NCBI GenBank assembly: GCA_963713605.1
Contig: CAVQMO010000010.1
Location: forward strand, 1,056,001-1,120,000
Origin: an uncultured Nitrososphaerales archaeon
Lineage (GTDB): Archaea > Thermoproteota > Nitrososphaeria > Nitrososphaerales > Nitrososphaeraceae
DNA: 64,000 bases
Direction: 5' to 3'
The translations under genes and the position numbers were made by a program. The notes below the pieces were generated by a model. It made no database searches and was not told the origin of the DNA. It was given only the letters and a program-made list of their open reading frames with translations. This document shows, piece by piece, positions 49,657 to 64,000 of the stretch (position 1 is its first letter; each line of letters opens with the position of its first letter).

Positions 49657-51398
49657 TTGTTATACCCAGGTACTTTGAGTAACTTGAGAAACAATGTTTT
49701 TTCATACATATTTGTAGCAATACTAATGGGGGCACTTGGACTTCACGTAATACCAATTAATCAGGTATTTGCGTCCACTGGTGCATCCTCAGCCGCAGCA
49801 GCGGCAGCAGGTGACGCCGCAGCAGCAGCCGCAGCAGCAGCTGGTGGTTCAGCGCGCGCAGCTGCAGCCGCAGGTGACGCCGCAGCAGCAGCCGCAGCAG
49901 CAGCTGGTGGTTCAGCGGCGCAGCCGCAGCTGCAGCAGGCTCAGCAGCCGGCAGCAGCAGTAGCAGCAGGTGGCGGTTCAGCAGCCGGCAGCAGCAGCAG
50001 CAGGTGGAGCGAGCAGCAGTAGCGAGCAGCTGGTGGTTCAGCAGCCGCAGCCGCAGCCGCAGGTGAAGCAGCAGCAGCCGCAGGCAGCGGCTGGAAACGA
50101 TCCAGCAGCAGCGGCCGCAGCAGCAGCAGGTAACTCCGGAGCCGCAGCAGCAGCAGCAGCCGCAGCTGGCAATGGTGCAGCTGCAGGTGGCAGCAGCAGG
50201 CTCAGCAGCCGGCAGCAGTAGCAGCAGCCGGTGGTTCAGCAGCAGCCGCAGCAGCAGCAGGCTCAGCAGCGGCAGCAGTAGCAGCAGCCGGTGGTTCAGG
50301 CAGCAGCCGGAGCAGCAGCAGGTGGAGCAGCAGCAGCCGCAGCTGCTGCTGGAGGAGATCCTGGCTCAGCAGCCGCAGCAGCAGCAGCCGGCAGCAGGTG
50401 GTTCAGGAGCAGCCGGCAGCAGCAGCAGGTGGAGCAGCAGCAGCCGGAGCAGGCAGCGGGTGGCGGTGGTTCAGCAGCAGCAGCCGCAGCAGCAGGTGGA
50501 GCGCGGAGCAGCCGCTGGAGCAGCAGCAGCGGGTGGTGGTTCAGGCAGCAGCAGCCGGAGCAGCTGGCGCAGCAGCGTCAGCAGCAGCCGGAGCAGCTGG
50601 TGGTGGTTCATCAGCCGCCGGCAGCAGCAGCAGCAGCAGCGGGTGGTGGAGCTGCAGGCGCAGCAGCTGGCTCAGGAGCAGCAGCAGCCGGAGCAGCTGG
50701 TGGTGGTGCTGGAGCGGCAGCAGCAGCCGCCTCAGCAGCCGGCAGCAGCAGCGTCAGGCGGAGCCTCGGCTGGAGCAGGAGCAGCAGCAGGTGGTGCGAG
50801 CCGGAGCAGCCGGAGCAGCTGGCGGGGATGCTGCTGCAGCAGCCGCAGCAGCAGCAGAAGAGAATGGAGCCTCGGCCGCAGCAGCAGCAGCAGCAGGTAG
50901 CGGCAGCAGAGCAGCTGCGAGCAGCAGCAGAAGATGCAGCTGCAGCAGCTGCTGCTGCTGGAGGAGATGAATCTACAGCAGCCGCCGGAGCAGCAGCTGC
51001 TGCTGGAGCAGCTGGTGCGGCAGCAGCAGGAGGCGCAGATCCAGAAGAAGCAGCCGGCAGCAGGTTCTTCAGCAGCAGGTGCAGCAGAGGAGTCTCAGAG
51101 AAACATGGTAGCCGCTGAACAACCGGTTATAGATAACATGGTAGCCGCTGAACAACCTGGCGCAGCACCAGCTGTTGAAGCTGAACCTCCTGCAGAACAA
51201 CCTCCAGCTGACGAACCAGAACAACCTCCAGCCTGACGAACCAGAACAACCTCCAGCTGACGAACCAGAACAACCTCCAGCTGACGGCGAAGGCAATGGC
51301 AATGGTGACGGCGAAGGCAATGGCAATGGTGACGGCGAAGGAATGGCAATGGTGACGGCGAAGGAAATGGCAATGGTGACGGCGAAGGCAACAATTAG
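49657..51398 (+). CDS. Secreted Ala/Gly-rich low-complexity (silk-like) protein with acidic Pro-rich and GNGDGE-repeat tail; many indels
   Basis: Signal peptide ending QVFA, then AAAAAAAAGGS/GD blocks hopping frames, (EQPPADEP)n, (GNGDGE)n, TAG at 51396 and T-tract. Confidence 0.75.
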
Positions 51399-52087
51399 TG
51401 GAAACAAAACCCACTTCCTTTTTTTATAATTAATACTTGAATGAAATAGATTCGAACCCCTTTTCTTCTCTGTGATTCAGAACGTTAATTCTTACTTAAA
51501 GTAGACTATGTTTTATGCCAATAAACAAACATCTGAAACTTTCCACATATTCTTTTTCAAGTTGCAGTTCTTCCTGATAACGAAGTACCTCCTGAAGGTA
51601 GAGCACCTGTGAAGGAGAAGAAGGCGGAGTCTCCTATGCCACACGTTAGACATTGTAATTTAATCATCTAGCTGATGATCGTCTGCTCTTTAAAGATGCA
51701 ATTTAAAGGGAATAGATAGTAGCGATTAGGGCAGGGGGGGCCGTAGATCCTATTGAAGCAAAAAAGAATCGGATTTTCTATCTGTCTCAGAAAGGCAACT
51801 ACTAGCCAATCAAGGAATTCAGTGCTGGCACAACATATCACTCTGCGAGTTTTTGTCTGGTAGTCCGATTAAATATTACCATACTTATAATTCGTATGTA
51901 TCCTTGACTGACTTCGTATCTAATTATTCGTAACTGTAGGTAAAAGAATGTTTTCACAGGATTAAGATTGCTTAATCAAAATTTCCCAAACACATTCATG
52001 TTTGTGCCTGACAACATGGGTTTTCACCCAATTTTATAAATTGTGGTTTATGTTGTTTTTCTTTTTCGCATTAGATGATGATTTAAA

Positions 52088-55715: not shown

Positions 55716-56048
55716 CGTGATAATCTAAATCTTGATGAGTATATATATCGTTTGTACAACTTACTCGTGTATGATTCAGAATAATAGTATTTTTGATATC
55801 AAACTAAACAGCGGCGGGTTAAATTGTAGCAAAACCCAATAAACCGTTCTATCTTCATAAATGTTGTAGTTTGATTAAAACAGAATTTACAATTTGACAG
55901 TAGATACCTTACCCACACAGCATATGAGCAAACTACTACTGTATAAAGTCAGTGAACCTGTTACTCGAGCTAATTGGCGTTGTATATGCATGCCGGACAA
56001 CATCATCGTTTATATCCTTTTTTGAATATCATTTCTAATCATTACTCC

Positions 56049-56124
56049 TTATGACCAGCATGCACATTCTCATAGCATCAAGCAAGTCATCAAATGAAGT
56101 TGCATCCTTATCAAGCATACCTTC
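56049..56124 (-). pseudogene. Terminase large subunit 3'-end fragment, copy A
   Basis: EGMLDKDATSFDDLLDAMRM aligns with the end of ORF 59925-60245. Confidence 0.7.
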
Positions 56125-56290
56125 CTTTCGTACCTACTTCCTTTTCATAGCGCTCTTTTGCAGTCGGGCATTGGTACTGATTGTAACTGTAGTATATTGC
56201 AACGACCAATTTTGATACTAAGACAACAACCGGTAATCTACCCTTACCTTACCTTCGTGTATCGTTCCTGATTATCTGAATTCTGACATT

Positions 56291-57190
56291 CTACCTCATA
56301 GAGTCGTTCCTCATTATCTGAAATGAATCGAACATTCTTTTGACAACAGGTAGATAGGTGTCAAAATAACCGGGTTCTGCCTGATATTTTATTTCAAACA
56401 TTTCATTTTCAAGAGGAGCAGCCACTTCTAGCCATTTTCGAGTCTCATTATTGACATATGAGTAATGGACGATCTGATAAGCAGGAATCCCGGAGAGAGT
56501 AGTATTGGATTGGTCAACTAATCACTTACTTTATGTTTCCGTTAAAGTATGACTCTAAAGCAGACTCATGCTTGAATTTGGTAATATACGAGTACTTATC
56601 GATACGCTAACCGGCTCGGCTAAATCAAAAATACTTCTGTTTATTTCCAATGAATAAAGGAAGGCTACGTGATATGCTGCAAGGTTTATTTCAGATTTTG
56701 TCCAATTAGGCGGATAATCCATCTTTATATCATAATCTGGGTTTTCATAAGTTAGAAATTCGTTCGAACCAAAGACATTATCGAAATAGACTAGGCCTAA
56801 GCCCCCAAATGCCATAACTATAATTATGATTGAGCCTATTAACGCAACCGATTGCTGAGGAGTTAACACTTTGTTACTTTTAATTTTATGTTGCAATTTA
56901 TTACTGCCAATGTCTGCCTTTCTAAGTGCCGAATCGAAAGTAAGCGCATGGGTATATGACCGCTCTAACTTTGTTGGTAGTATTTCTCTAAGTCTTCGTT
57001 CCTTGACTATTCCATCAAATGTAGTTTCTATGTCTTTGCGGATTGCTTCGTTTGACAGGCCGTCCTTCTTACCCTGCTCGTATAACTTTACGGCTACATC
57101 AGCAGCGCTAACAAATGCTTGTTTTAGCTCCTCAAGAAGTTTTGAATATTCTCCGGAGCGCTTGGGTTCTATCCCTTCTGCGGACGTCAT
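56291..57190 (-). pseudogene. Chimeric/disrupted ORF: helical N-terminal domain joined to TM plus PsbP-like domain
   Basis: FLTYENPDYDIKMDYPPNW, then after a stop TTLSGIPAY...IKYQAEP..FDTYLPVVKRMFDSFQI. Confidence 0.55.
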
Positions 57191-57384
57191 TTCTTAGACT
57201 TTTTAGCCGGAACGACAGTCTTACGTACTGCAGCGATTAATTCGCCATCCTTACAGACTTCTAAAGTCCATTCAACTTCTTCCCCTGCCTTCAGGCCCCA
57301 CTGTTTTACGATGAACATTGGAACCGTCGTCTTCAAGGATGCCTTGTTTTTCGTGTTCAAAGATAGGGCTGTTCTCTCTCCCAT
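57187..57384 (-). CDS. AbrB/MazE/SpoVT-type DNA-binding protein
   Basis: SLKTTVPMFIVKQWGLKAGEEVEW; start taken at MGERT. Confidence 0.75.
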   Translation of the reverse strand: MGERTALSLNTKNKASLKTTVPMFIVKQWGLKAGEEVEWTLEVCKDGELIAAVRKTVVPAKKSKK

Positions 57385-57592
57385 AGTAATACTACTTGTA
57401 TACATACAATGGAATATATAATCAGCTAACTTATAAGTATACCTTCTAGTATCCCCAAATGTATATATACCTGTTGGTGGGTATATTAATAGTAATATTA
57501 GAAATGAGTCAAAATCAGATTCAAAAACAAGAAAATAATGAAATACGGCAGTACCCTCCAACTGCCCCCTCCTGCAGAATTAACTGTACAGC

Positions 57593-57979
57593 GTGAGGAT
57601 TGAACAAACCGTGAAAGGTGCAAGGATAAGCGTCCACTGCTATAAAAGGATTCTTGAGTTAGCGGCTAGGGAAGCGATAGAGGCGTACTTAAGTACTCGC
57701 AGACAGTTAAAAGAGGTAGGTCTTAAGGTGGCCTATGATTGTAGATCCAATGGATTCGCCAATGTTCAAGTCTATCTTGCGGGGAAAGATGATCAGGGTC
57801 GTGCAATTCGACTAGAAAGTGACGGGGTAACACCCCATGTACACAAAACTAAAGTACCTTCCCAACAACAGGCACAACAGCAGCAGCAACAATTCCGACA
57901 GTCGGAAAATAATGTTGTTACTACTATGCATTGCTTCGAACGATGGACGCAAAACTCGACAGGATTCTTAATGTTCTAA
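57593..57979 (+). CDS. Hypothetical protein, divergent from the AbrB gene (mobile-element-like)
   Basis: 128-aa ORF with poly-Gln segment. Confidence 0.5.
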   Translation: MRIEQTVKGARISVHCYKRILELAAREAIEAYLSTRRQLKEVGLKVAYDCRSNGFANVQVYLAGKDDQGRAIRLESDGVTPHVHKTKVPSQQQAQQQQQQFRQSENNVVTTMHCFERWTQNSTGFLMF

Positions 57980-58212
57980 CGGCAAGGGAAACCAGCAGTA
58001 CCAGGACCTAACTAGTAATTAGTAAGAATGACTAAAGTTAGCATGCAAGATCGGGAATGGGGCAAGAGGGATAAAGTGACCAACATCCGAGAATGGTAGA
58101 AGACGGAAAATACCATCTTACTGCATCCTACAACCATTGGTCATATCACGAGGCGAGGCGATTGAGCTCGTGCACGAAGCCATCGGCCGCCCTGTTCCCG
58201 GAGGTCGTGAAC

Positions 58213-59028
58213 TTACGCCTTCAGCGCCAGTGTGAGCAGGTAGTCCTGCCTCATCAAATTCTCATGTATGTAAGGTGTAATGGCTCGTATAAAGTCGTGT
58301 TCTAGTGCCTCGACCTTAGCTAGTACCCTGTCCCCCAAGTGCTTGGATGGCGCGTATCAGGGGCCCATATTTTGTACTAAACAATTGCCAAAAATGGTTT
58401 GGGCTCAATACAGGAATGTGTACGGCACCTCGTTCGAAGTGAAGGTCCTTGACGTTGCTACTGCCTAGACGCTCCTGTACTGTCTGTGGAATTCCCCATT
58501 GCATAGGCGAGGGAGGGCTCCCAGGAGGAGGCGGGACATGCTTTACAATAGCCGCGAAGAATCTTCCTACTGTATGTTCAGGAGGCCAAGTTGTAAATGC
58601 GATACGGCCCCCTTCCTTTGTGACTCTGATCAGCTCTTTGGAGCAACCTCTGGACGAGGAGTAAACATATGTCCTAGACTTGATAACACTATGTCAAATG
58701 AATTATCAGGAAAGGGAAGGTCTTCAGCATCACCGTGTTTCCATTCGATCCCTTCCGTTACACCGGCAAGGGCTGCTTCTTCCTTCGCACGTGCCAAAAG
58801 TTCAGGTGTGAGGTCTATCCCAATTACCTTCCCCCCTGCTCTGCACGCAGTGATAGCTGTAATGCCAGTACCACATGCTACGTCTAGCACTTGCTCACCA
58901 CGACTGACACTTGCGGCACGTACTAAGTGAGCGGACATAGGAGAAAGGAAGGTCGCTATGTCGTTATAAGAACCCAAGGCCCAAGTTGCCTTCGCTTTCT
59001 CCTTGAGATCTGCAATAGGGTCGCTCAA
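58213..59028 (-). CDS. Class I SAM-dependent methyltransferase, frameshifted; locally higher GC
   Basis: VLDVACGTG, GIDLTP, GDAEDLPF.DNSFD, GGRIAFTTWPP, ends QDYLLTLALKA*. Confidence 0.85.
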
Positions 59029-59133
59029 AACAAATCTTCAAAGTACTATTCGACTAGTTGTAATAAAGTTTTTATGTTCTAAGGAACGGTATCACCGAGA
59101 ATTGTCCCTCTAAATTTCAGAACCTACATCATT

Positions 59134-59542
59134 GTGAGGGTCATGTGTCGTTCCCTCTGTCGTCATTCTACACATGTGACTCTTCATGATGATGCAGAGG
59201 GATATGCCGCGGGATGGAATCCTGGTAATGTTCCTATTACCCCCCTACAAATTCCTCCTATAATTAGCGCTCCACCCTTCGGACTCATCACAATCAAATC
59301 ACCGGTTGAGTTGGAGGGCTTCATTTTCTATAGAAGCCACGTTCGTAAATCCTCAGAATCCTGAAACATTCCAAACACCAGAAGAACCACCTATAGTGAT
59401 TACTAGAGCAGGGCAATGCGAACTGGGTGATGTTAATACATCTACAAATACATTTGGCCTAGATTGTACTCGGGATGATGGTACTGGTTCTGTAAGTAGA
59501 CCCCTTGATGGAGCCATCCTTACATATATTATCACTAAATAG
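59134..59542 (+). pseudogene. Fragment of an extracellular-type beta-rich domain, frameshifted
   Basis: Overlapping ORFs VTLHDDAEGYAAGWNPG... and ...CELG...FGLDC...PLDGAILTYIITK*. Confidence 0.4.
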
Positions 59543-59569
59543 TCTCACAAGAGAGTAAAACTGACTCGA

Positions 59570-59659
59570 TCAATGGCAAAATAACAAACTCATTCGAAAC
59601 GCATCGAATAAATCATCCTGGCTAGTTGCTTCCTTGTCTAATGCACCTTCCCCATTTTC
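59570..59659 (-). pseudogene. Terminase large subunit 3'-end fragment, copy B
   Basis: ENGEGALDKEATSQDDLFDAFRMSLLFCH*. Confidence 0.75.
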
Positions 59660-59924
59660 TAGAGAAACATTATTAGAGAACTATAGAAGAATCCATTCTT
59701 ACATAACTATAGAAGAATCTTATATAAATGATGTTTACGTTATAATAGTTTTACAGTGAGATGATATGAGACGATGAGATGGGAATGTATTTACTGTAAC
59801 AGCGTAATGGATAGCACAAACTTTACAGAATTCATAAAACAAAGTGACAACGACAGGAACAGCGTTCAACAAGCGAAAGTGCAATATCATACTTGGAGAC
59901 CGCTGCCAGAGTCAGGCGACGAGG

Positions 59925-60290
59925 CTAGTGCCAGAACAGAAGCGCTAGTCTAAAACCGTCGAACAAATCGTCATATGAAGTAGCATCTTTATCTAGGGAC
60001 CCTTCTCCTTTTTCAACTGCCGTACGTAATGCGGTAATTAACTTCGCATGCTTGGGATTAATTTCTACTTGGCCATCATTGTACTCGAGCATCTGCTTAC
60101 AATGGGCAAGCATCTTTTTATGTTCCTTGGAAAATGCTACCGGGATCACAAACATATTTTCCTCCAGGAATTTCAAGTCGTAAATTGATGGGTACTGTTT
60201 CTTCAAATAAGAACATACGCGTTCATAGTTTGTATCCTCATCCAATCTTTCCTTTAAAGCACGGATAAAGGATGGATTAGCGCCGGAAAC
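59925..60290 (-). pseudogene. Terminase large subunit nuclease-domain fragment, copy C (longest)
   Basis: SGANPSFIRALK...LITALRTAVEKGEGSLDKDATSYDDLFDGFRLAL. Matches the D-x-A-x-P and DDxxDAxR motifs of TerL RNase H-like domains. Confidence 0.72.
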
Positions 60291-60291
60291 A

Positions 60292-60357
60292 ATACCAGAA
60301 CGCTAAACTCATTCGAAACGCATCAAATAAATCATCGGTTGACGTTGCTTCCTTGTC
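60292..60357 (-). pseudogene. Terminase large subunit 3'-end fragment, copy D
   Basis: DKEATSTDDLFDAFRMSLAFWY, abutting copy C. Confidence 0.72.
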
Positions 60358-60531
60358 TGCATTACTAAATCATCTTAGCGTACTTACTAAGTTAAAGGAC
60401 TCAAGTTCGTACTTGGTAGCGTTCGACAGTAAATCTACGGAAGTCTCATTTAACTCTGGATCACCTGTTTCTACAAAGTCACGAAACAGAGCATAACTTG
60501 CACGCTCAGAATTCAAACTTTTTATGTATGT

Positions 60532-60957
60532 ATGGAAAGCAGGCAGCGTGAAGTAAGTGATATAAGAAGTATTGAAACAGGTATTCAATTCCTTTCTCAG
60601 GCTGAGAAAATGGATGAGCTTCATGATGAAATTGGCTTATCTAAGAATGGTTGTAGTTTTCTGCTGCAGCATCCCAATGGCCTAAAGATATCAGTTGTAT
60701 CTTTCGAAGATTTGAGGGATGGTGAATTCCTCGAGTTAGCCCATTTTGGAAGACGTCCCAATGATATACAAAGGAAAAAATGGATTGCTGAAAATGGTAT
60801 GCAAAAGGACCACGAGCGGCTAGCAGAAGTACTTAGGCAGAGGATGGAAGGCGAGATCCCGGATAAAAATATGACCGCGGAAGAAGTGAAGGGCATAATA
60901 TCATCGGCTCTCAACGATAGTAACAGTAGTAATAGTAGTAGTAGTACTAGGTACTAG
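60532..60957 (+). CDS. Hypothetical protein/fragment (5' part overlaps an opposite-strand gene remnant at 60370-60624)
   Basis: 141-aa ORF. Confidence 0.35.
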   Translation: MESRQREVSDIRSIETGIQFLSQAEKMDELHDEIGLSKNGCSFLLQHPNGLKISVVSFEDLRDGEFLELAHFGRRPNDIQRKKWIAENGMQKDHERLAEVLRQRMEGEIPDKNMTAEEVKGIISSALNDSNSSNSSSSTRY

Positions 60958-61627
60958 TGGCAATCGTAAGAGAAAGCGCAAAGAATGACTATTCGCTTTC
61001 TCGGAACTCCATTAGCCACGATCGACCAATCTTAATACTTAACACACGTTATAAAGCCACCTCATACTATCTCCTTACCGAGTGGCCTTAATAACAAGGA
61101 GAGCCTATCAGATTCAGGGCCTTACTAGGGTTCACAAATACTCGCTAGAACAAATATTGTATTTCCTTCTAAGAAGGACGATCGGTGGGCATTGGTCGTG
61201 TCGTTGACAATAACAGGCTAGACTCATCTGCATATTCCTACATTACAAATAAATCAAAGACGCTAAAAAGTAGTGGAGCCGGTATAGGATAGAGACCCGC
61301 CAACCACTGACCGTCCATATGAAGTAATATCTATTACTGTACCTTGCAGAACGGATAACTTCTTCATATGAAACTGTTTATTGTAATGATGGTATCTCCA
61401 TGTGATCCTTTCCTGACCGCTTTAAATCACTGGGTGTGGTTGGGCCAAGTTAACGAGTTTATGCCTAAATAGGTCAAGAGTTAAGTCCTAACTACTTTGA
61501 TGACAAATCGACTAGGACGAGCAGAAGCGCATTTTAACTAACTAACTACTTGACTAACTAATCGACTAATGCCAGAACTCCAGTGACAATCTGAAACTCA
61601 ATCTCAGTCATAAAAACATCTTTTACA

Positions 61628-61690
61628 TAAACTATAGATGATAAATCAGATTTAAGTAGAGAACATATCTCACCAAATCCAGATTAGTCA
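61628..61690 (+). promoter_or_regulatory. Conserved upstream block of collagen-like gene 1 with palindrome TAAATC-A-GATTTA
   Basis: taaactatagatgataaatcagatttaa...caccaaatcca, near-identical to 63159-63220. Confidence 0.7.
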
Positions 61691-61722
61691 TTTTGTGTTT
61701 TTGGATGCTTGTAGCAGAAGGT

Positions 61723-63042
61723 ATGGATAATAAGACCAACAACGGAAATCGAAAAATATCAGTTTCAGTAGTCACGATAATGCTCATAGTTGGAGCAGTA
61801 TCAACAGCACAACTATCGTCTATGGTAATAACTAATGGTAATGTAGTCTACGCCTATTCTGCCAATTCTGAATCAAGCAGCATCTCAAGTCATTAACTGC
61901 TCGGGACAAGATGAGAGTAGCCAAAATTGTGTAAACAATAATCTTGAAACGCAAGGAAAAGATAATGATGTAAATGCTCAGATCTCGACACCATCAGGAC
62001 CCCAAGGGCCTTCTGGACCTCAAGGACCGGAGGGACCCCAAGGACCACAAGGAGTGCAGGGACCAGCAGGTGCAGTAGGACCAGCAGGACCACAGGGTGA
62101 ACAAGGACTACAAGGGATTCAAGGAATTCAAGGAGTTAAAGGAGATACTGGCGCTACAGGACCAGCAGGACCAGCAGGTGCAGAAGGACCAGCAGGACCA
62201 GCAGGTGCTAGTAGGACCAGCAGGACCAGCAGGTGCTGAAGGACCAGAAGGTGCTGAAGGACCAGCAGGACCAGCAGGCAGCAGGTGCAAAGGACAGCAG
62301 GCTGCAACAGGTACCAGTAGGACCAGCAGGTGCTGAAGGACCAGCAGGACCAGCAGGGCCAGCAGGTGCAATAGGACCAGCAGGACCAGCAGGTGCAATA
62401 GGACCAGCAGGACCAGCAGGATGCAATAGGACCAGCAGGACCAGCAGGACCAGCAGGACCAGCAGGTGCAAAAGGACCAGCAGGACCAGCAGGTGCAGCA
62501 GGTGCAATAGGACCAGCAGGTCCGAAGGACCAGCAGGTGCAGAAGGACCAGCAGGACCAGCAGGTGCAATAGGACCAGCAGGACCAGCAGGTGCAATAGG
62601 ACCAGCAGGACCAGCAGGTGCAATAGGACCAGCAGGACCAGCAGGTGGCAGCAGGTGCAATAGGACCAGCAGGTGCAATAGGACCAGCAGGACCAGCAGG
62701 TGAATAGACCAGCAGGACCAGCAGGTGCAATAGGACCAGCAGGTCCAGCAGGACCAGCAGGACCTGACAAGGTATTACAAACTACGAGCTACAAGCAAAT
62801 CCGCCCACTACAATTACGCCCAACTCGGGAATTGGAACTAGCATGGTGACCTGCCCTCCAGGAACAGTCGTGACGGGAGGAGGAATGGAGCTCCTCGGCG
62901 CCCAACCAAGTTACGTTCTCTGTTGAAACGGGCCACCAGATTGGCAATGGATGGACGGTTGAATTTTTTAATGGTACTCCTACTTCTGCTAATGCCCAAT
63001 TGCGTGCTGTGGCAACCTGTGCTTCACTAATACCACCTCTAG
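61723..63042 (+). CDS. Secreted collagen-like (Gly-X-Y) protein 1 with Cys-containing N- and C-terminal domains; many indels, end approximate
   Basis: Signal peptide ...[21 protein letters not shown], long GPA/GAI/GAE repeats, [12 protein letters not shown]...GWTV...AVATCASL. Confidence 0.8.
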
Positions 63043-63113
63043 GTACCTTAAGTAAGGACAAACCTCCACCTCTTTTTTTCCATTCAAACTTCCCACTCTT
63101 TTTATCTTTTTGA

Positions 63114-63147
63114 AACACGAATATTTTTAGAACACGAATATTTTTAG
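63114..63147. repeat. 17-bp tandem direct repeat
   Basis: (aacacgaatatttttag)x2. Confidence 0.8.
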
Positions 63148-63158
63148 AATCCTTGATA

Positions 63159-63220
63159 TAAACTATAGATGATAAATCAGATTTAACTAGCAAACAGATT
63201 TCACCAAATCCAAATAAATC
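63159..63220 (+). promoter_or_regulatory. Conserved upstream block of collagen-like gene 2 with palindrome TAAATC-A-GATTTA
   Basis: Matches 61628-61690. Confidence 0.7.
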
Positions 63221-63250
63221 AATTTCCCCTTCTTGGTACCGCTAGAGAGC

Positions 63251-64000
63251 ATGGGAACCAATATTAGAAAAACCAAGGGAATTCGGACGTTATCTATGTC
63301 GGTAACTACGATATTGCTCGTTGGCAGCATCAGTGGTACAACTGTCGTCTATGACATTATCCAATGGTAATGTAGTTTACGCGTATTCTTCCAACTTTAA
63401 TTCGGCAGCGTCTCTTGTCATTAACTGTTCAGGAGATCATGAGAGTAGTCAAAATTGTGTAAACAATAATCTGGAATCACAGGGAAAAAATAATGACAAT
63501 AATGCGCAGGTAAGCACACTACCTGGACCGCCAGGACCTCAAGGACCAGCAGGACCAGCAGGATCACAGGGTGAACAAGGACTACAAGGAGTTAAAGGAG
63601 ATACTGGCGCTACAGGACCAGCAGGACCAGCAGGTGTACTAAGGACCAGCAGGATCACAGGGTGAACAAGGACTACAAGGAGTTAAAGGAGATACTGGCG
63701 CTACAGGACCAGCAGGATCACAGGGTGAACAAGGACTACAAGGAGTTAAAGGAGATACTGGCGCTACAGGACCAGCAGGATCACAGGGTGAACAAGGACT
63801 ACAAGGAGTTAAAGGAGATACTGGCGCTACAGGACCAGCAGGATCACAGGGTGAACAAGGACTACAAGGAGTTAAAGGAGATACTGGCGCTACAGGACCA
63901 GCAGGACTCACAGGGTGAACAAGGACTACAAGGAGTTAAAGGAGATACTGGCGCTACAGGACCCGCAGGTGCAGTAGGACCAGCAGGACCACAAGGAGAG
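63251..64000 (+). CDS. Secreted collagen-like protein 2 (partial, runs off window end)
   Basis: ...VVYAYSSN...[17 protein letters not shown] then Gly-X-Y repeats. Confidence 0.8.
63552..63958 (+). repeat. 63-bp tandem repeat encoding [21 protein letters not shown] (~6 copies)
   Basis: ggaccagcaggatcacagggtgaacaaggactacaaggagttaaaggagatactggcgctaca repeated almost identically, no spacers. Confidence 0.92.

Follow-up and report, generated by a model that had tools for sequence, protein, structure and literature searches.

Terminase gene ends lie between exchanged cargo modules in a Nitrososphaerales genome

In the genome of an uncultured Nitrososphaerales archaeon, short 3′-terminal copies of the gene encoding the large terminase (terL), referred to below as tails, are set between small cargo modules, and the flanking DNA is exchanged at these tails. 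The window analyzed comprises 64,000 nucleotides (positions 1,056,001 to 1,120,000 of contig CAVQMO010000010.1, here C10), and a first-pass annotation of it had singled out four minus-strand segments, A to D, encoding the same C-terminal peptide. All four are present at the coordinates given and with the translation claimed, and they are the 3′ ends of a large terminase (TerL) of about 495 aa. This identity, already proposed in the annotation, was borne out by the full-length relatives of copy C, which matched phrog_2 in 7/7 cases (E 2.5e-17 to 4e-26), and by the best PDB matches of the TerL model (T4 gp17, Sf6 gp2, and the HK97 and D6E TerL); copy C alone gave no significant match to Pfam or PHROGs.

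The local array and the tail population

The features of the window (window coordinates) and of the adjoining DNA (C10 coordinates) are as follows:

56044-56125, minus strand: terL tail A, about 82 nt (nhmmer); reads MRMCML.. with no FWH-stop (3′ end altered); the final tail of the array
within 56555-57979: AbrB/MazE-like ORF and unnamed ORFs between B and A (MazE_antitoxin E 0.004, below the cut-off)
58316-59028, minus strand: class I methyltransferase (Methyltransf_25 E 2e-20) split over two ORFs, perhaps by a sequencing indel; cargo between B and A
59403-59569: DNA directly after tail B, 78% shared with the DNA after tail C3:8429, whose upstream flank differs
59570-59661, minus strand: terL tail B, 92 nt
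59662-59924: 263-nt cassette between C and B, holding a 59-aa CxxC ORF (plus strand, 59774-59953)
59925-60292, minus strand: terL fragment C, 368 nt; covers the nuclease domain in its C-terminal part (DGANP motif through stop)
60289-60358, minus strand: terL tail D, 70 nt, stop lost; runs straight into the 5′ break of C
60359-61565: module of 1.2 kb separating tails E and D; carries an unnamed ORF of 141 aa (plus strand, 60532-60957)
61566-61612, minus strand: terL tail E, the fifth copy, 31-47 nt
61613-64000: collagen-repeat cargo; the array goes on past the window end
C10:1120275, 1122102, 1123572, 1124156, 1129158 and 1130589, minus strand: tails past the window
C10:1124319-1124900, minus strand: truncated tyrosine integrase, 4.3 kb beyond the window and in the same orientation as the array

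The tails of the window are part of an 11-copy, single-strand array extending past the window to the truncated tyrosine integrase. The earlier count of four copies was incomplete (a fifth lies at 61566 and six more just past the window), and the view that the array has no local integrase does not hold. Unrelated genes, which had been said to separate the copies, are absent between C and D, where the last codon of D abuts the 5′ break of C. The three short copies do begin within 8 codons of each other, but this cluster is due to local chance, since the starts are continuous genome-wide.

The wide synonymous divergence described for copies A to D was confirmed: over 18 shared codons the six pairs have 59-83% DNA identity (B and D being the closest, at 83%), with 5-14 third-position differences versus 1-3 at position 2, which supports their suggested origin from different donors in the sense of different functional alleles. 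The 263-nt cassette recurs at nine further genomic sites, seven of them flanked on one or both sides by a co-oriented tail, and the module between E and D has a 67% homologue just upstream of a terS-terL pair at C10:219.5-222.7 kb. Misassembly is unlikely, because tails are present in each of the 13 other genomes of the genus (1-94 matches) and flanks recur across genomes; the single junctions of the window are known from the assembly alone. The loci of these relatives were chosen for holding tails, so the spread of tail lengths among them is biased to long copies.

In the whole genome we identified 171 tail positions, clustered and co-oriented, with a median length of about 40 nt and nearly all shorter than 140 nt. 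The scan thresholds exceeded the best score of the reversed genome, which excludes a chance origin of the matches. The fixed point of the tails is their 3′ end. On the 5′ side, the 124 copies measured (6/130 tails were absent from the length table after merging) form a continuum, with starts lying <25 to 140 nt ahead of the stop codon (median 40.5), and the length distribution drops sharply at about 140 nt, 118/124 being shorter; the clustering of 5′ breakpoints that the annotation had expected was thus not found. In the controls of this measurement, planted 30-nt tails were measured at 30-43 nt and the non-seed gene L145 extended to the 600-nt limit. A minimal unit of 35 nt, considered at one point, proved to be an artefact of the 36-nt scan window, as shorter windows reach copies of 18-25 nt. 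Profile coverage was 66-68 at the TerL end versus 5 in the ATPase domain.

Analysis of 155 copies revealed that neighbouring tails ≤5 kb apart lie on the same strand in 70 cases versus 9 on opposite strands, and that the median distance to the nearest tail is 1470 nt versus 9216 nt at random. Within 42 intervals, 28 cargo ORFs are oriented forward and 20 in reverse. DNA within 2 kb of a tail makes up 11% of the genome, and the density of repeated DNA near tails is roughly double that elsewhere (19% versus 8.6% at depth ≥3). Other TerL subfamilies, with differing end sequences, form the same kind of arrays.

Donor elements with intact terL genes

The TerL family is present in 94 of 151 genomes of the family, and the 79 cellular loci analyzed contain 40 intact terL genes that have kept the ATPase and nuclease motifs. 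Their products show 32-53% identity to the viral set and are placed in the tree beyond a 100%-supported branch from the viral TerLs, except that two long-branch viral rows fall among them. The donor elements share a plan of integrase, replicase, TerS-like HTH gene and TerL. An integrase (PF00589 on the neighbouring family) is located ≤10 kb upstream of 9/27 intact terL genes, and an HTH gene ≤3.5 kb upstream of 21/27. The latter is TerS-like by position, its profile match to the viral gene in the same position reaching only 25% or less; Atlas placed it with HTH families and one viral cluster (at 0.94). In some loci only (L058, L103, L102 and L067), a D5-type primase-helicase, MCM or PolB is encoded upstream of terL. 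With regard to a PICI regulator (alpA/stl/merR type), several loci have a divergent gene next after the integrase.

Behind intact terL genes come cargo and co-oriented tails of the same subfamily. Near the 40 intact genes, 10 extra same-strand tails were found downstream and 1 upstream (9 versus 0 without one full-gene pair), and in L135 the order is integrase, intact 508-aa TerL, cargo, 24-nt tail, cargo, 24-nt tail. The gene order that had been anticipated for intact proviruses, with cargo right after terL, does therefore occur, but in elements in which neither portal nor capsid genes were detected.

A portal gene adjoins terL in 44/49 viral loci (L001-L049) versus 0/79 cellular loci. No portal or capsid match was obtained in this genome or in 2.08 Mb of cellular loci, and searches with the portal of the relatives, PF04860 and PF05065 matched in 0/14 genomes of the genus (Pfam controls were positive in 4/14). 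The PHROGs search of 115 cellular-locus proteins, mostly drawn from among 182 cluster representatives of 230-900 aa, yielded no portal or capsid, while three viral controls matched; nor did any conserved gene behind terL, whether in L103-L114 or in the viral rows L004 and L046, match a portal or capsid profile. Two weak ClpP-like "head maturation protease" matches and one lysozyme-domain match among the cellular-locus proteins were not counted as virion genes. The donors are thus without a portal or capsid detectable by the profiles used, which distant forms could escape. For this reason the idea that the array is fed by head-tail proviruses is unsupported, and assignment of the elements to the Caudoviricetes, which calls for a portal and an HK97-fold capsid gene beside terL, was rejected.

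Flank exchange at the tails and its possible causes

Flanks were compared for 392 distinct tails (413 before identical 100-nt contexts were merged), and of the pairs among them 66 have just the upstream flank in common, 71 just the downstream one and 6 both. The ends of homology were analyzed for 285/392 tails, 107 with too little flank or a length >140 nt being excluded. In upstream-sharing pairs at ≥88% identity, homology ends at −10 to 0 in 11/18 cases and at +10 to +122 in 4/18 (0.42 versus 0.01 ends per nt), and in 10/14 groups the end lies in the tail. Most of these pairs therefore switch flank in the last 10 nt. The tail thus functions as a joint between cassettes, and the terL 3′ end is, as first proposed, a recurrent breakpoint at which cargo modules join and exchange.

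In seven triples (not all independent), informative sites at −36 to −19 followed the upstream partner 28 times versus 4, and sites at −4 to −1 followed the downstream partner 9 times versus 0. Swaps in short tails fall in −17 to −5, where both parents are usually identical, and long tails switch at about −95, −50, −48, −42, −40 and −21. The motif TGCAG is present in 42/84 short versus 22/88 long copies when those positions are omitted from the score (p=0.0009, a value that overstates the difference because the copies are related). In the case of a SnoaL gene, one constant junction is combined with synonymously different tails.

We consider it somewhat probable that capsid-less, satellite-like integrative elements use the terL end as a short-homology recombination joint, so that tails sit between exchanged cargo modules. 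Starting from the observed order of intact terL, cargo and co-oriented tails, loss of DNA from a tandem or circular element would fuse the cargo end with the interior of the following terL, creating a cargo-tail unit, and the terL piece would then erode from its 5′ side. Exchange would then occur in short tails within the last ~17 nt, where a 13-nt block (TGCAGTTCTGGCA) is common to both parents, and in long tails at any point of the 20-100 nt held in common, which is the pattern seen. A unit that inserts at an intact terL gene would keep the encoded protein complete, because it brings identical last codons and a stop; arrays could therefore grow behind a working gene, and the tails would remain protein-like. 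Candidate catalysts are host homology-directed repair, for which an identity of 13 nt is short, or a relaxed-specificity tyrosine integrase of the element, with putative packaging by a helper virus. Archaeal integrases with low-specificity recombination have been described (PMC8371274).

Counted against the joint model are the lack of any excised circle or empty-versus-filled strain pair among the data seen and the few short copies in the second subfamily of this genome (7/31 at ≤40 nt). The larger number of off-profile residues in shorter tails (1.52 of 9 at 33-49 nt versus 0.68 at ≥200 nt, a trend that is partly circular because damage shortens the measured length) also counts against it, as do the 9/48 downstream-sharing pairs that resemble plain deletions; both fit passive erosion. 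It is nonetheless unlikely, in our judgement, that the arrays are a product of passive decay alone, with tandem integration at tRNA sites, selection keeping the cargo behind terL, deletions clearing the rest, and tails as leftover spacers with incidental swaps. Such decay would account for the arrays behind tRNA-integrase pairs (tRNA-Met, with two downstream 3′ fragments, and tRNA-Lys), for the location of tails downstream of same-strand integrases (38 versus 8, 9 and 5 for the other three arrangements) and for the state of the shorter tails, and recombination between tandem elements has been described (PMC8371274); it does not predict the homology ends ≤10 nt from the stop in 11/18 pairs, the TGCAG enrichment in short copies, the renewed tails behind one SnoaL junction, or the finding of only 3-9 copies of the terL 5′ end, given that cargo often lies upstream of terL. 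A true integron analogue, with a site-specific recombinase dedicated to the 13-nt block (TGC-N7-GCA, with a 7-bp spacer and 3-bp inverted ends), is highly improbable: the narrow range of short-tail swaps and the presence of five tyrosine-integrase frames of about 400 aa (8 PF00589 matches) agree with it, whereas the switch in long tails occurs at more than one position, the same arrays are built by subfamilies whose end sequences differ, the tRNA-Met att core (the one read) is unlike the block, and a right arm, hairpin and covariation are all absent. An attC-like hairpin noticed by eye in the 37-nt tail consensus was ruled out by folding (mean z −0.26 for the top and −0.06 for the bottom strand, 40 tails each) and by covariation (8 candidate pairs, equal to the independent expectation), and a conserved att arm after the stop by an information content of ≤0.15 bit.

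The boldest rival, which we regard as rather unlikely, is that the terL end serves as the packaging site (pac- or cos-like) of the element. The terminase would cut 20-140 nt before, or at, the stop, the downstream DNA would go into helper capsids, and the cut ends would join new DNA or recombine with resident tails, so that the terminase defines the cassettes. A fixed 3′ anchor with a 5′ spread falling sharply at ~140 nt is what scattered pac cuts should leave, and the intact TerL in loci with no detected capsid gene, the roughly five-to-one ratio of tails to terS-like or integrase matches, and the 13-nt switch block, which is the size of a cohesive end, are in line with it; the several switch positions of long tails and the lack of a conserved sequence after the stop are not, neither a cut site nor a pile-up of read ends nor particle DNA was seen, and described pac sites are mostly elsewhere, in or near terS. 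In the doubtful event that archaeal satellites have turned their terminase into a gene-cassette engine, with TerS-TerL cutting in the last codons of terL, borrowed capsids carrying cargo and ends plugging into 100-plus resident tails, the result would be an integron-like system driven by a packaging nuclease, and some of the gene-family expansion seen in Nitrososphaerales could be explained by it.

Known systems and biological meaning

Integrons, archaeal ones included, contain co-oriented repeats between one-gene modules, with exchange near the 3′ end of the repeat and the repeat body travelling with the upstream module. The tails described here likewise are co-oriented between modules, are exchanged near their 3′ end and move with the upstream module; to this extent the annotation's term "integron-like" is apt. 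It does not extend to an integron-type att site: the integron repeat is an attC hairpin whereas the repeat here is the end of a protein-coding gene, cargo lies in both orientations, and neither a single crossover bond nor a conserved downstream core was found. In polymorphic toxin loci, orphan cassettes (5′-truncated gene pieces in tandem behind a full gene) are exchanged by homology, which alters the protein C-terminus; in the tail arrays the end of the protein is retained, and it is the adjacent genes that change. The TerL of head-tail proviruses of Nitrososphaeria (Nvie-Pro1) and of the viral loci L001-L049 is homologous to the cellular TerL, the viral loci differing in the portal that adjoins terL.

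The elements resemble PICIs and cf-PICIs in the order of integrase, replicase, a gene that is TerS-like by position, and cargo after the terminase, and in tRNA integration, with no tail genes seen (PMC10085698). As described there, PICIs are without TerL, which is a core gene here, and cf-PICIs combine TerL with portal, capsid and head-tail genes; a plan of TerL and a putative TerS with no detectable capsid or portal fits neither. The only described parallel that we found is NitKor-E1 of Ca. Nitrosopumilus koreensis, a cryptic integrated element, called enigmatic and a likely relic, which has a tyrosine integrase and TerS-TerL and no other tailed-virus gene, the likeness being one of gene content (PMC6563490). 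NitKor-E1 is a single case, whereas the elements described here are common and are followed by terL-tail arrays, of which the passages on NitKor-E1 in that paper make no mention. The "enigmatic relic" is thereby recast as a likely example of a widespread plan.

It follows that terL matches are poor provirus markers in these genomes. The expansion of Nitrososphaerales has been attributed to duplication (PMC7603488), in a paper whose main text contains the words "terminase" and "integrase" 0 times; the tail arrays suggest a specific way, open to testing, in which this order may gain and duplicate genes. If the terminase makes the cuts, they would constitute a new class of cassette system, and terL-tail joints as such would give these archaea integron-like gene gain and reshuffling.

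TerL identity and the extent of the array

Searches with fragment C recovered 88 relatives of greater length, often 475-550 aa, and those named by organism came from Nitrososphaeraceae. The proposal that the repeated peptide is the end of a large terminase (TerL) was confirmed by profile comparison, in which 7/7 of the longer relatives tested matched phrog_2 (terminase large subunit), and a structure model of one relative (pLDDT 78) gave the TerL proteins of T4, Sf6, HK97 and D6E as best matches. KKATGLG, DE and STxN are retained in the TerL alignment, as are the acidic positions within DxG, DGANP and DDxxD; we take these to be the Walker A/B and nuclease residues. In cellular and viral members alike (alignment A1) the P-loop is KKATGLG[VIF]TE, lacking the usual lysine before Thr, which we assume to resemble the deviant lambda-type Walker A.

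The four minus-strand terL ends (segments A-D) were present as described in the first-pass annotation, and their synonymous divergence was borne out, the differences lying mostly at third codon positions. Tail A (about 82 nt) has lost the FWH-stop end, tails B and D are 92 and 70 nt long, and fragment C comprises 368 nt. Genes had been placed between the copies, but D adjoins C directly; C and B are separated by a small CxxC cassette that occurs nine further times elsewhere. The array is much larger than first seen, and its initial interpretation was right only in part.

Features of the window, C10:1056001-1120000, and of adjoining DNA on contig C10
43327-47202, minus strand: run of housekeeping-type genes (presumably the coenzyme A pathway), holding half-gene-like ORF pairs
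49657-51429: Ala/Gly/Gln-rich low-complexity coding repeat; similar DNA self-matches up to 34 times in the genome
53034-54056: SPFH/Band 7 gene (E 1.9e-30), with four paralogues elsewhere in the source genome (76-86% DNA identity)
61566: fifth terL tail (E), initially overlooked
61693-64000: collagen-repeat genes, two in tandem, whose N-termini resemble each other; in cellular locus L135, the first cargo gene after the intact terL has a related N-terminus (by eye)
C10:1112044-1130589: 11 tails, 11/11 on the minus strand, overrunning the window
C10:1124319-1124900, beyond the window end: truncated tyrosine integrase (profile positions 13-196 of 391, 99 bits), contradicting the claim of no local integrase; just upstream, a weak 21-nt match to a tRNA-Lys 3' end

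In the source genome (G000), the TerL profile gave 120 hits of at least 12 bits, with a coverage of 66-68 over the last 25 residues against 5 over the ATPase domain. DNA matrices, with thresholds placed above the best score of the reversed genome, located 171 tail positions, including a few near-identical cross-contig duplicates. There are two end types, lettered separately from the window segments: type A (..SLQFWH-stop; most copies; median gapped length 40.5 nt, 118/124 below 140 nt) and type B (..CNYEPPK; 31 among the matches listed). The tails are clustered and neighbours share a strand (70 co-oriented vs 9 opposite); 22 islands with at least three tails together span 230 kb. A 36-aa tail query matched 13/13 other genomes of the genus (1-94 matches each), 5/11 other genera of the family and none of 16 genomes of other families. 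The full TerL profile was positive in 94/151 family genomes, a tally that takes in G152 and G172 (marked unpublished), on which nothing else in this account depends. Many small-protein families in G000 are repeated 10-37 times, and the density of repeated DNA roughly doubles within 2 kb of tails. PMC7603488 names duplication as the driver of expansion.

The tail as a joint between cassettes

Around the 40 intact terL genes, extra same-strand tails numbered 10 downstream and 1 upstream (9 and 0 once a single pair of full genes is left out), and downstream tails also occur in subfamilies with quite different end sequences. In L135, an integrase and an intact TerL gene are followed twice over by cargo and a 24-nt tail.

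Flanks were compared among 392 distinct A-type tails from G000 and 132 relatives' loci chosen for holding tails: 66 pairs had the upstream flank alone in common, 71 the downstream flank alone, and 6 both. Upstream-sharing pairs remained above random identity until about -10 (0.93 vs 0.53; minus positions are nt before the terL stop, plus positions after it) and were random at -4 to -1. When homology ends were mapped, differing downstream flanks not being a condition, upstream-sharing homologies (n=18) ended at -10 to 0 in 11 cases, at -43 in 1 and at +10 to +122 in 4, and 2 ran on; downstream-sharing ones (n=23) started at -25 to +8 in 13, further up within the tail in 4, and above the tail or at the edge in 6. 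Seven triples switch at -17..-5, where both parents carry TGCAGTTCTGGCA, and one within-genome case has, at -9, a private base of its upstream partner, but matches a third copy in the -1 base and the flank. A SnoaL gene lies between tails at four loci, whose tails differ synonymously.

Two rival readings are cutting by the terminase at a pac/cos-like position in the tail, which we consider unlikely, and the action of a dedicated site-specific recombinase, which we regard as very improbable. Several results speak against a strict site. Homology by itself accounts for part of the 3' preference, since the longest identical run falls within the last 10 nt in 344/1174 random long pairs. In long tails the switch points, read by eye, lie at about -95, -50, -48, -42, -40 and -21, short copies are few among B-type tails, and neither hairpins nor covariation in the tails nor conserved sequence 3' of the stop were found. 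The likeness to an integron array proposed at the outset holds for cassette behaviour but failed in the integron tests. Erosion is real, as short tails are more decayed than longer ones and 9/48 downstream-sharing pairs look like deletions; passive decay as the whole explanation appears slightly less probable than terminase cutting. Adjacent ORF pairs at 44.5-47.2 kb of the window look like halves of single genes; the G000 assembly seems to carry indel errors, which makes it uncertain whether genes that look "broken" really are so, among them the terS-terL pair at C10:220.8-222.7 kb.

On balance we favour short-homology recombination at the terL end as the source of the arrays. Deletions within tandem or circular elements would give rise to cargo-tail units, which would be eroded from the 5' side, as the decay data support, and would be exchanged at the tail, as seen in the flank pattern. 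The incoming unit would restore the last codons, so that an array could grow behind a working terL. Archaeal integrases of low specificity, described in PMC8371274, offer a precedent for the catalyst.

The donor elements

The 40 intact terL genes (at least 440 aa) were recovered among 79 cellular loci. An HTH gene occupies the terS position in 21/27 with enough upstream DNA (more than 300 nt from terL in 9 of those 21), a tyrosine integrase lies within 10 kb in 9/27, and the neighbouring replicases are of varied kinds. The portal family was found in 44/49 viral vs 0/79 cellular loci, and portal and capsid profiles gave no match in G000, 2.08 Mb of cellular loci or 14 genus genomes, which argues against the head-tail provirus origin suggested earlier. 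After a tRNA-Met at C10:850575 in G000 come an integrase and several co-oriented tails, along with two 3' fragments of tRNA-Met at 881-883 kb. The integrase/tRNA context and the absence of detected portal and capsid genes identify the donors as integrative, capsid-less, satellite-like elements, which would presumably use helpers. In a quick tree, cellular TerLs fall on one side of a branch with 100% SH-aLRT, with two long-branch viral rows inside, and most viral TerLs have a longer C-terminal extension than cellular ones.

Several further observations concern these loci. The interval from the terS-like gene to terL frequently contains cargo (L051, L060, L063, L069, L072, L087, L098), and lone terS-like copies recur; there may be a second insertion hotspot here. 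Defence-type cargo (GmrSD-HEPN, NurA, HerA and a type I restriction subunit) directly follows the intact terL of L056 (11499-21413), and in L067 (400-11383) the gene for a PolB-containing replication protein of 1792 aa is flanked by an integrase-like gene on one side and terS-terL on the other. Two RadA/Rad51-family ORFs among the tails inside the tRNA-Met element (L131:9802-13687; G000:C10 about 875.8-879.7 kb) may bear on homology-directed exchange. The IMG/VR contig L004 (9514-16726), with a TerL nested among cellular ones and no portal recognised, may represent a helper virus or the element in its free form; the gene after its terL is common to several Nitrososphaera-type loci (L103, L107, L108, L114).

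We found no published account of terL-tail arrays among the titles and abstract starts listed from a collection poor in subscription papers; more elements with a TerL may be described in the supplements of PMC6563490 and PMC11849493. In PMC11849493, soil AOA virus TerLs group with provirus-derived TerLs, a cluster that may include the donor clade or its helpers. Earlier archaeal satellites number two by a 2025 preprint's count, both of spindle-shaped viruses (10.1101/2025.02.15.638363). The donors match neither the PICI nor the cf-PICI definition as worded in PMC10085698; they share the gene plan of NitKor-E1, called an enigmatic relic in PMC6563490, and are new as a variant among satellite-like integrative elements.
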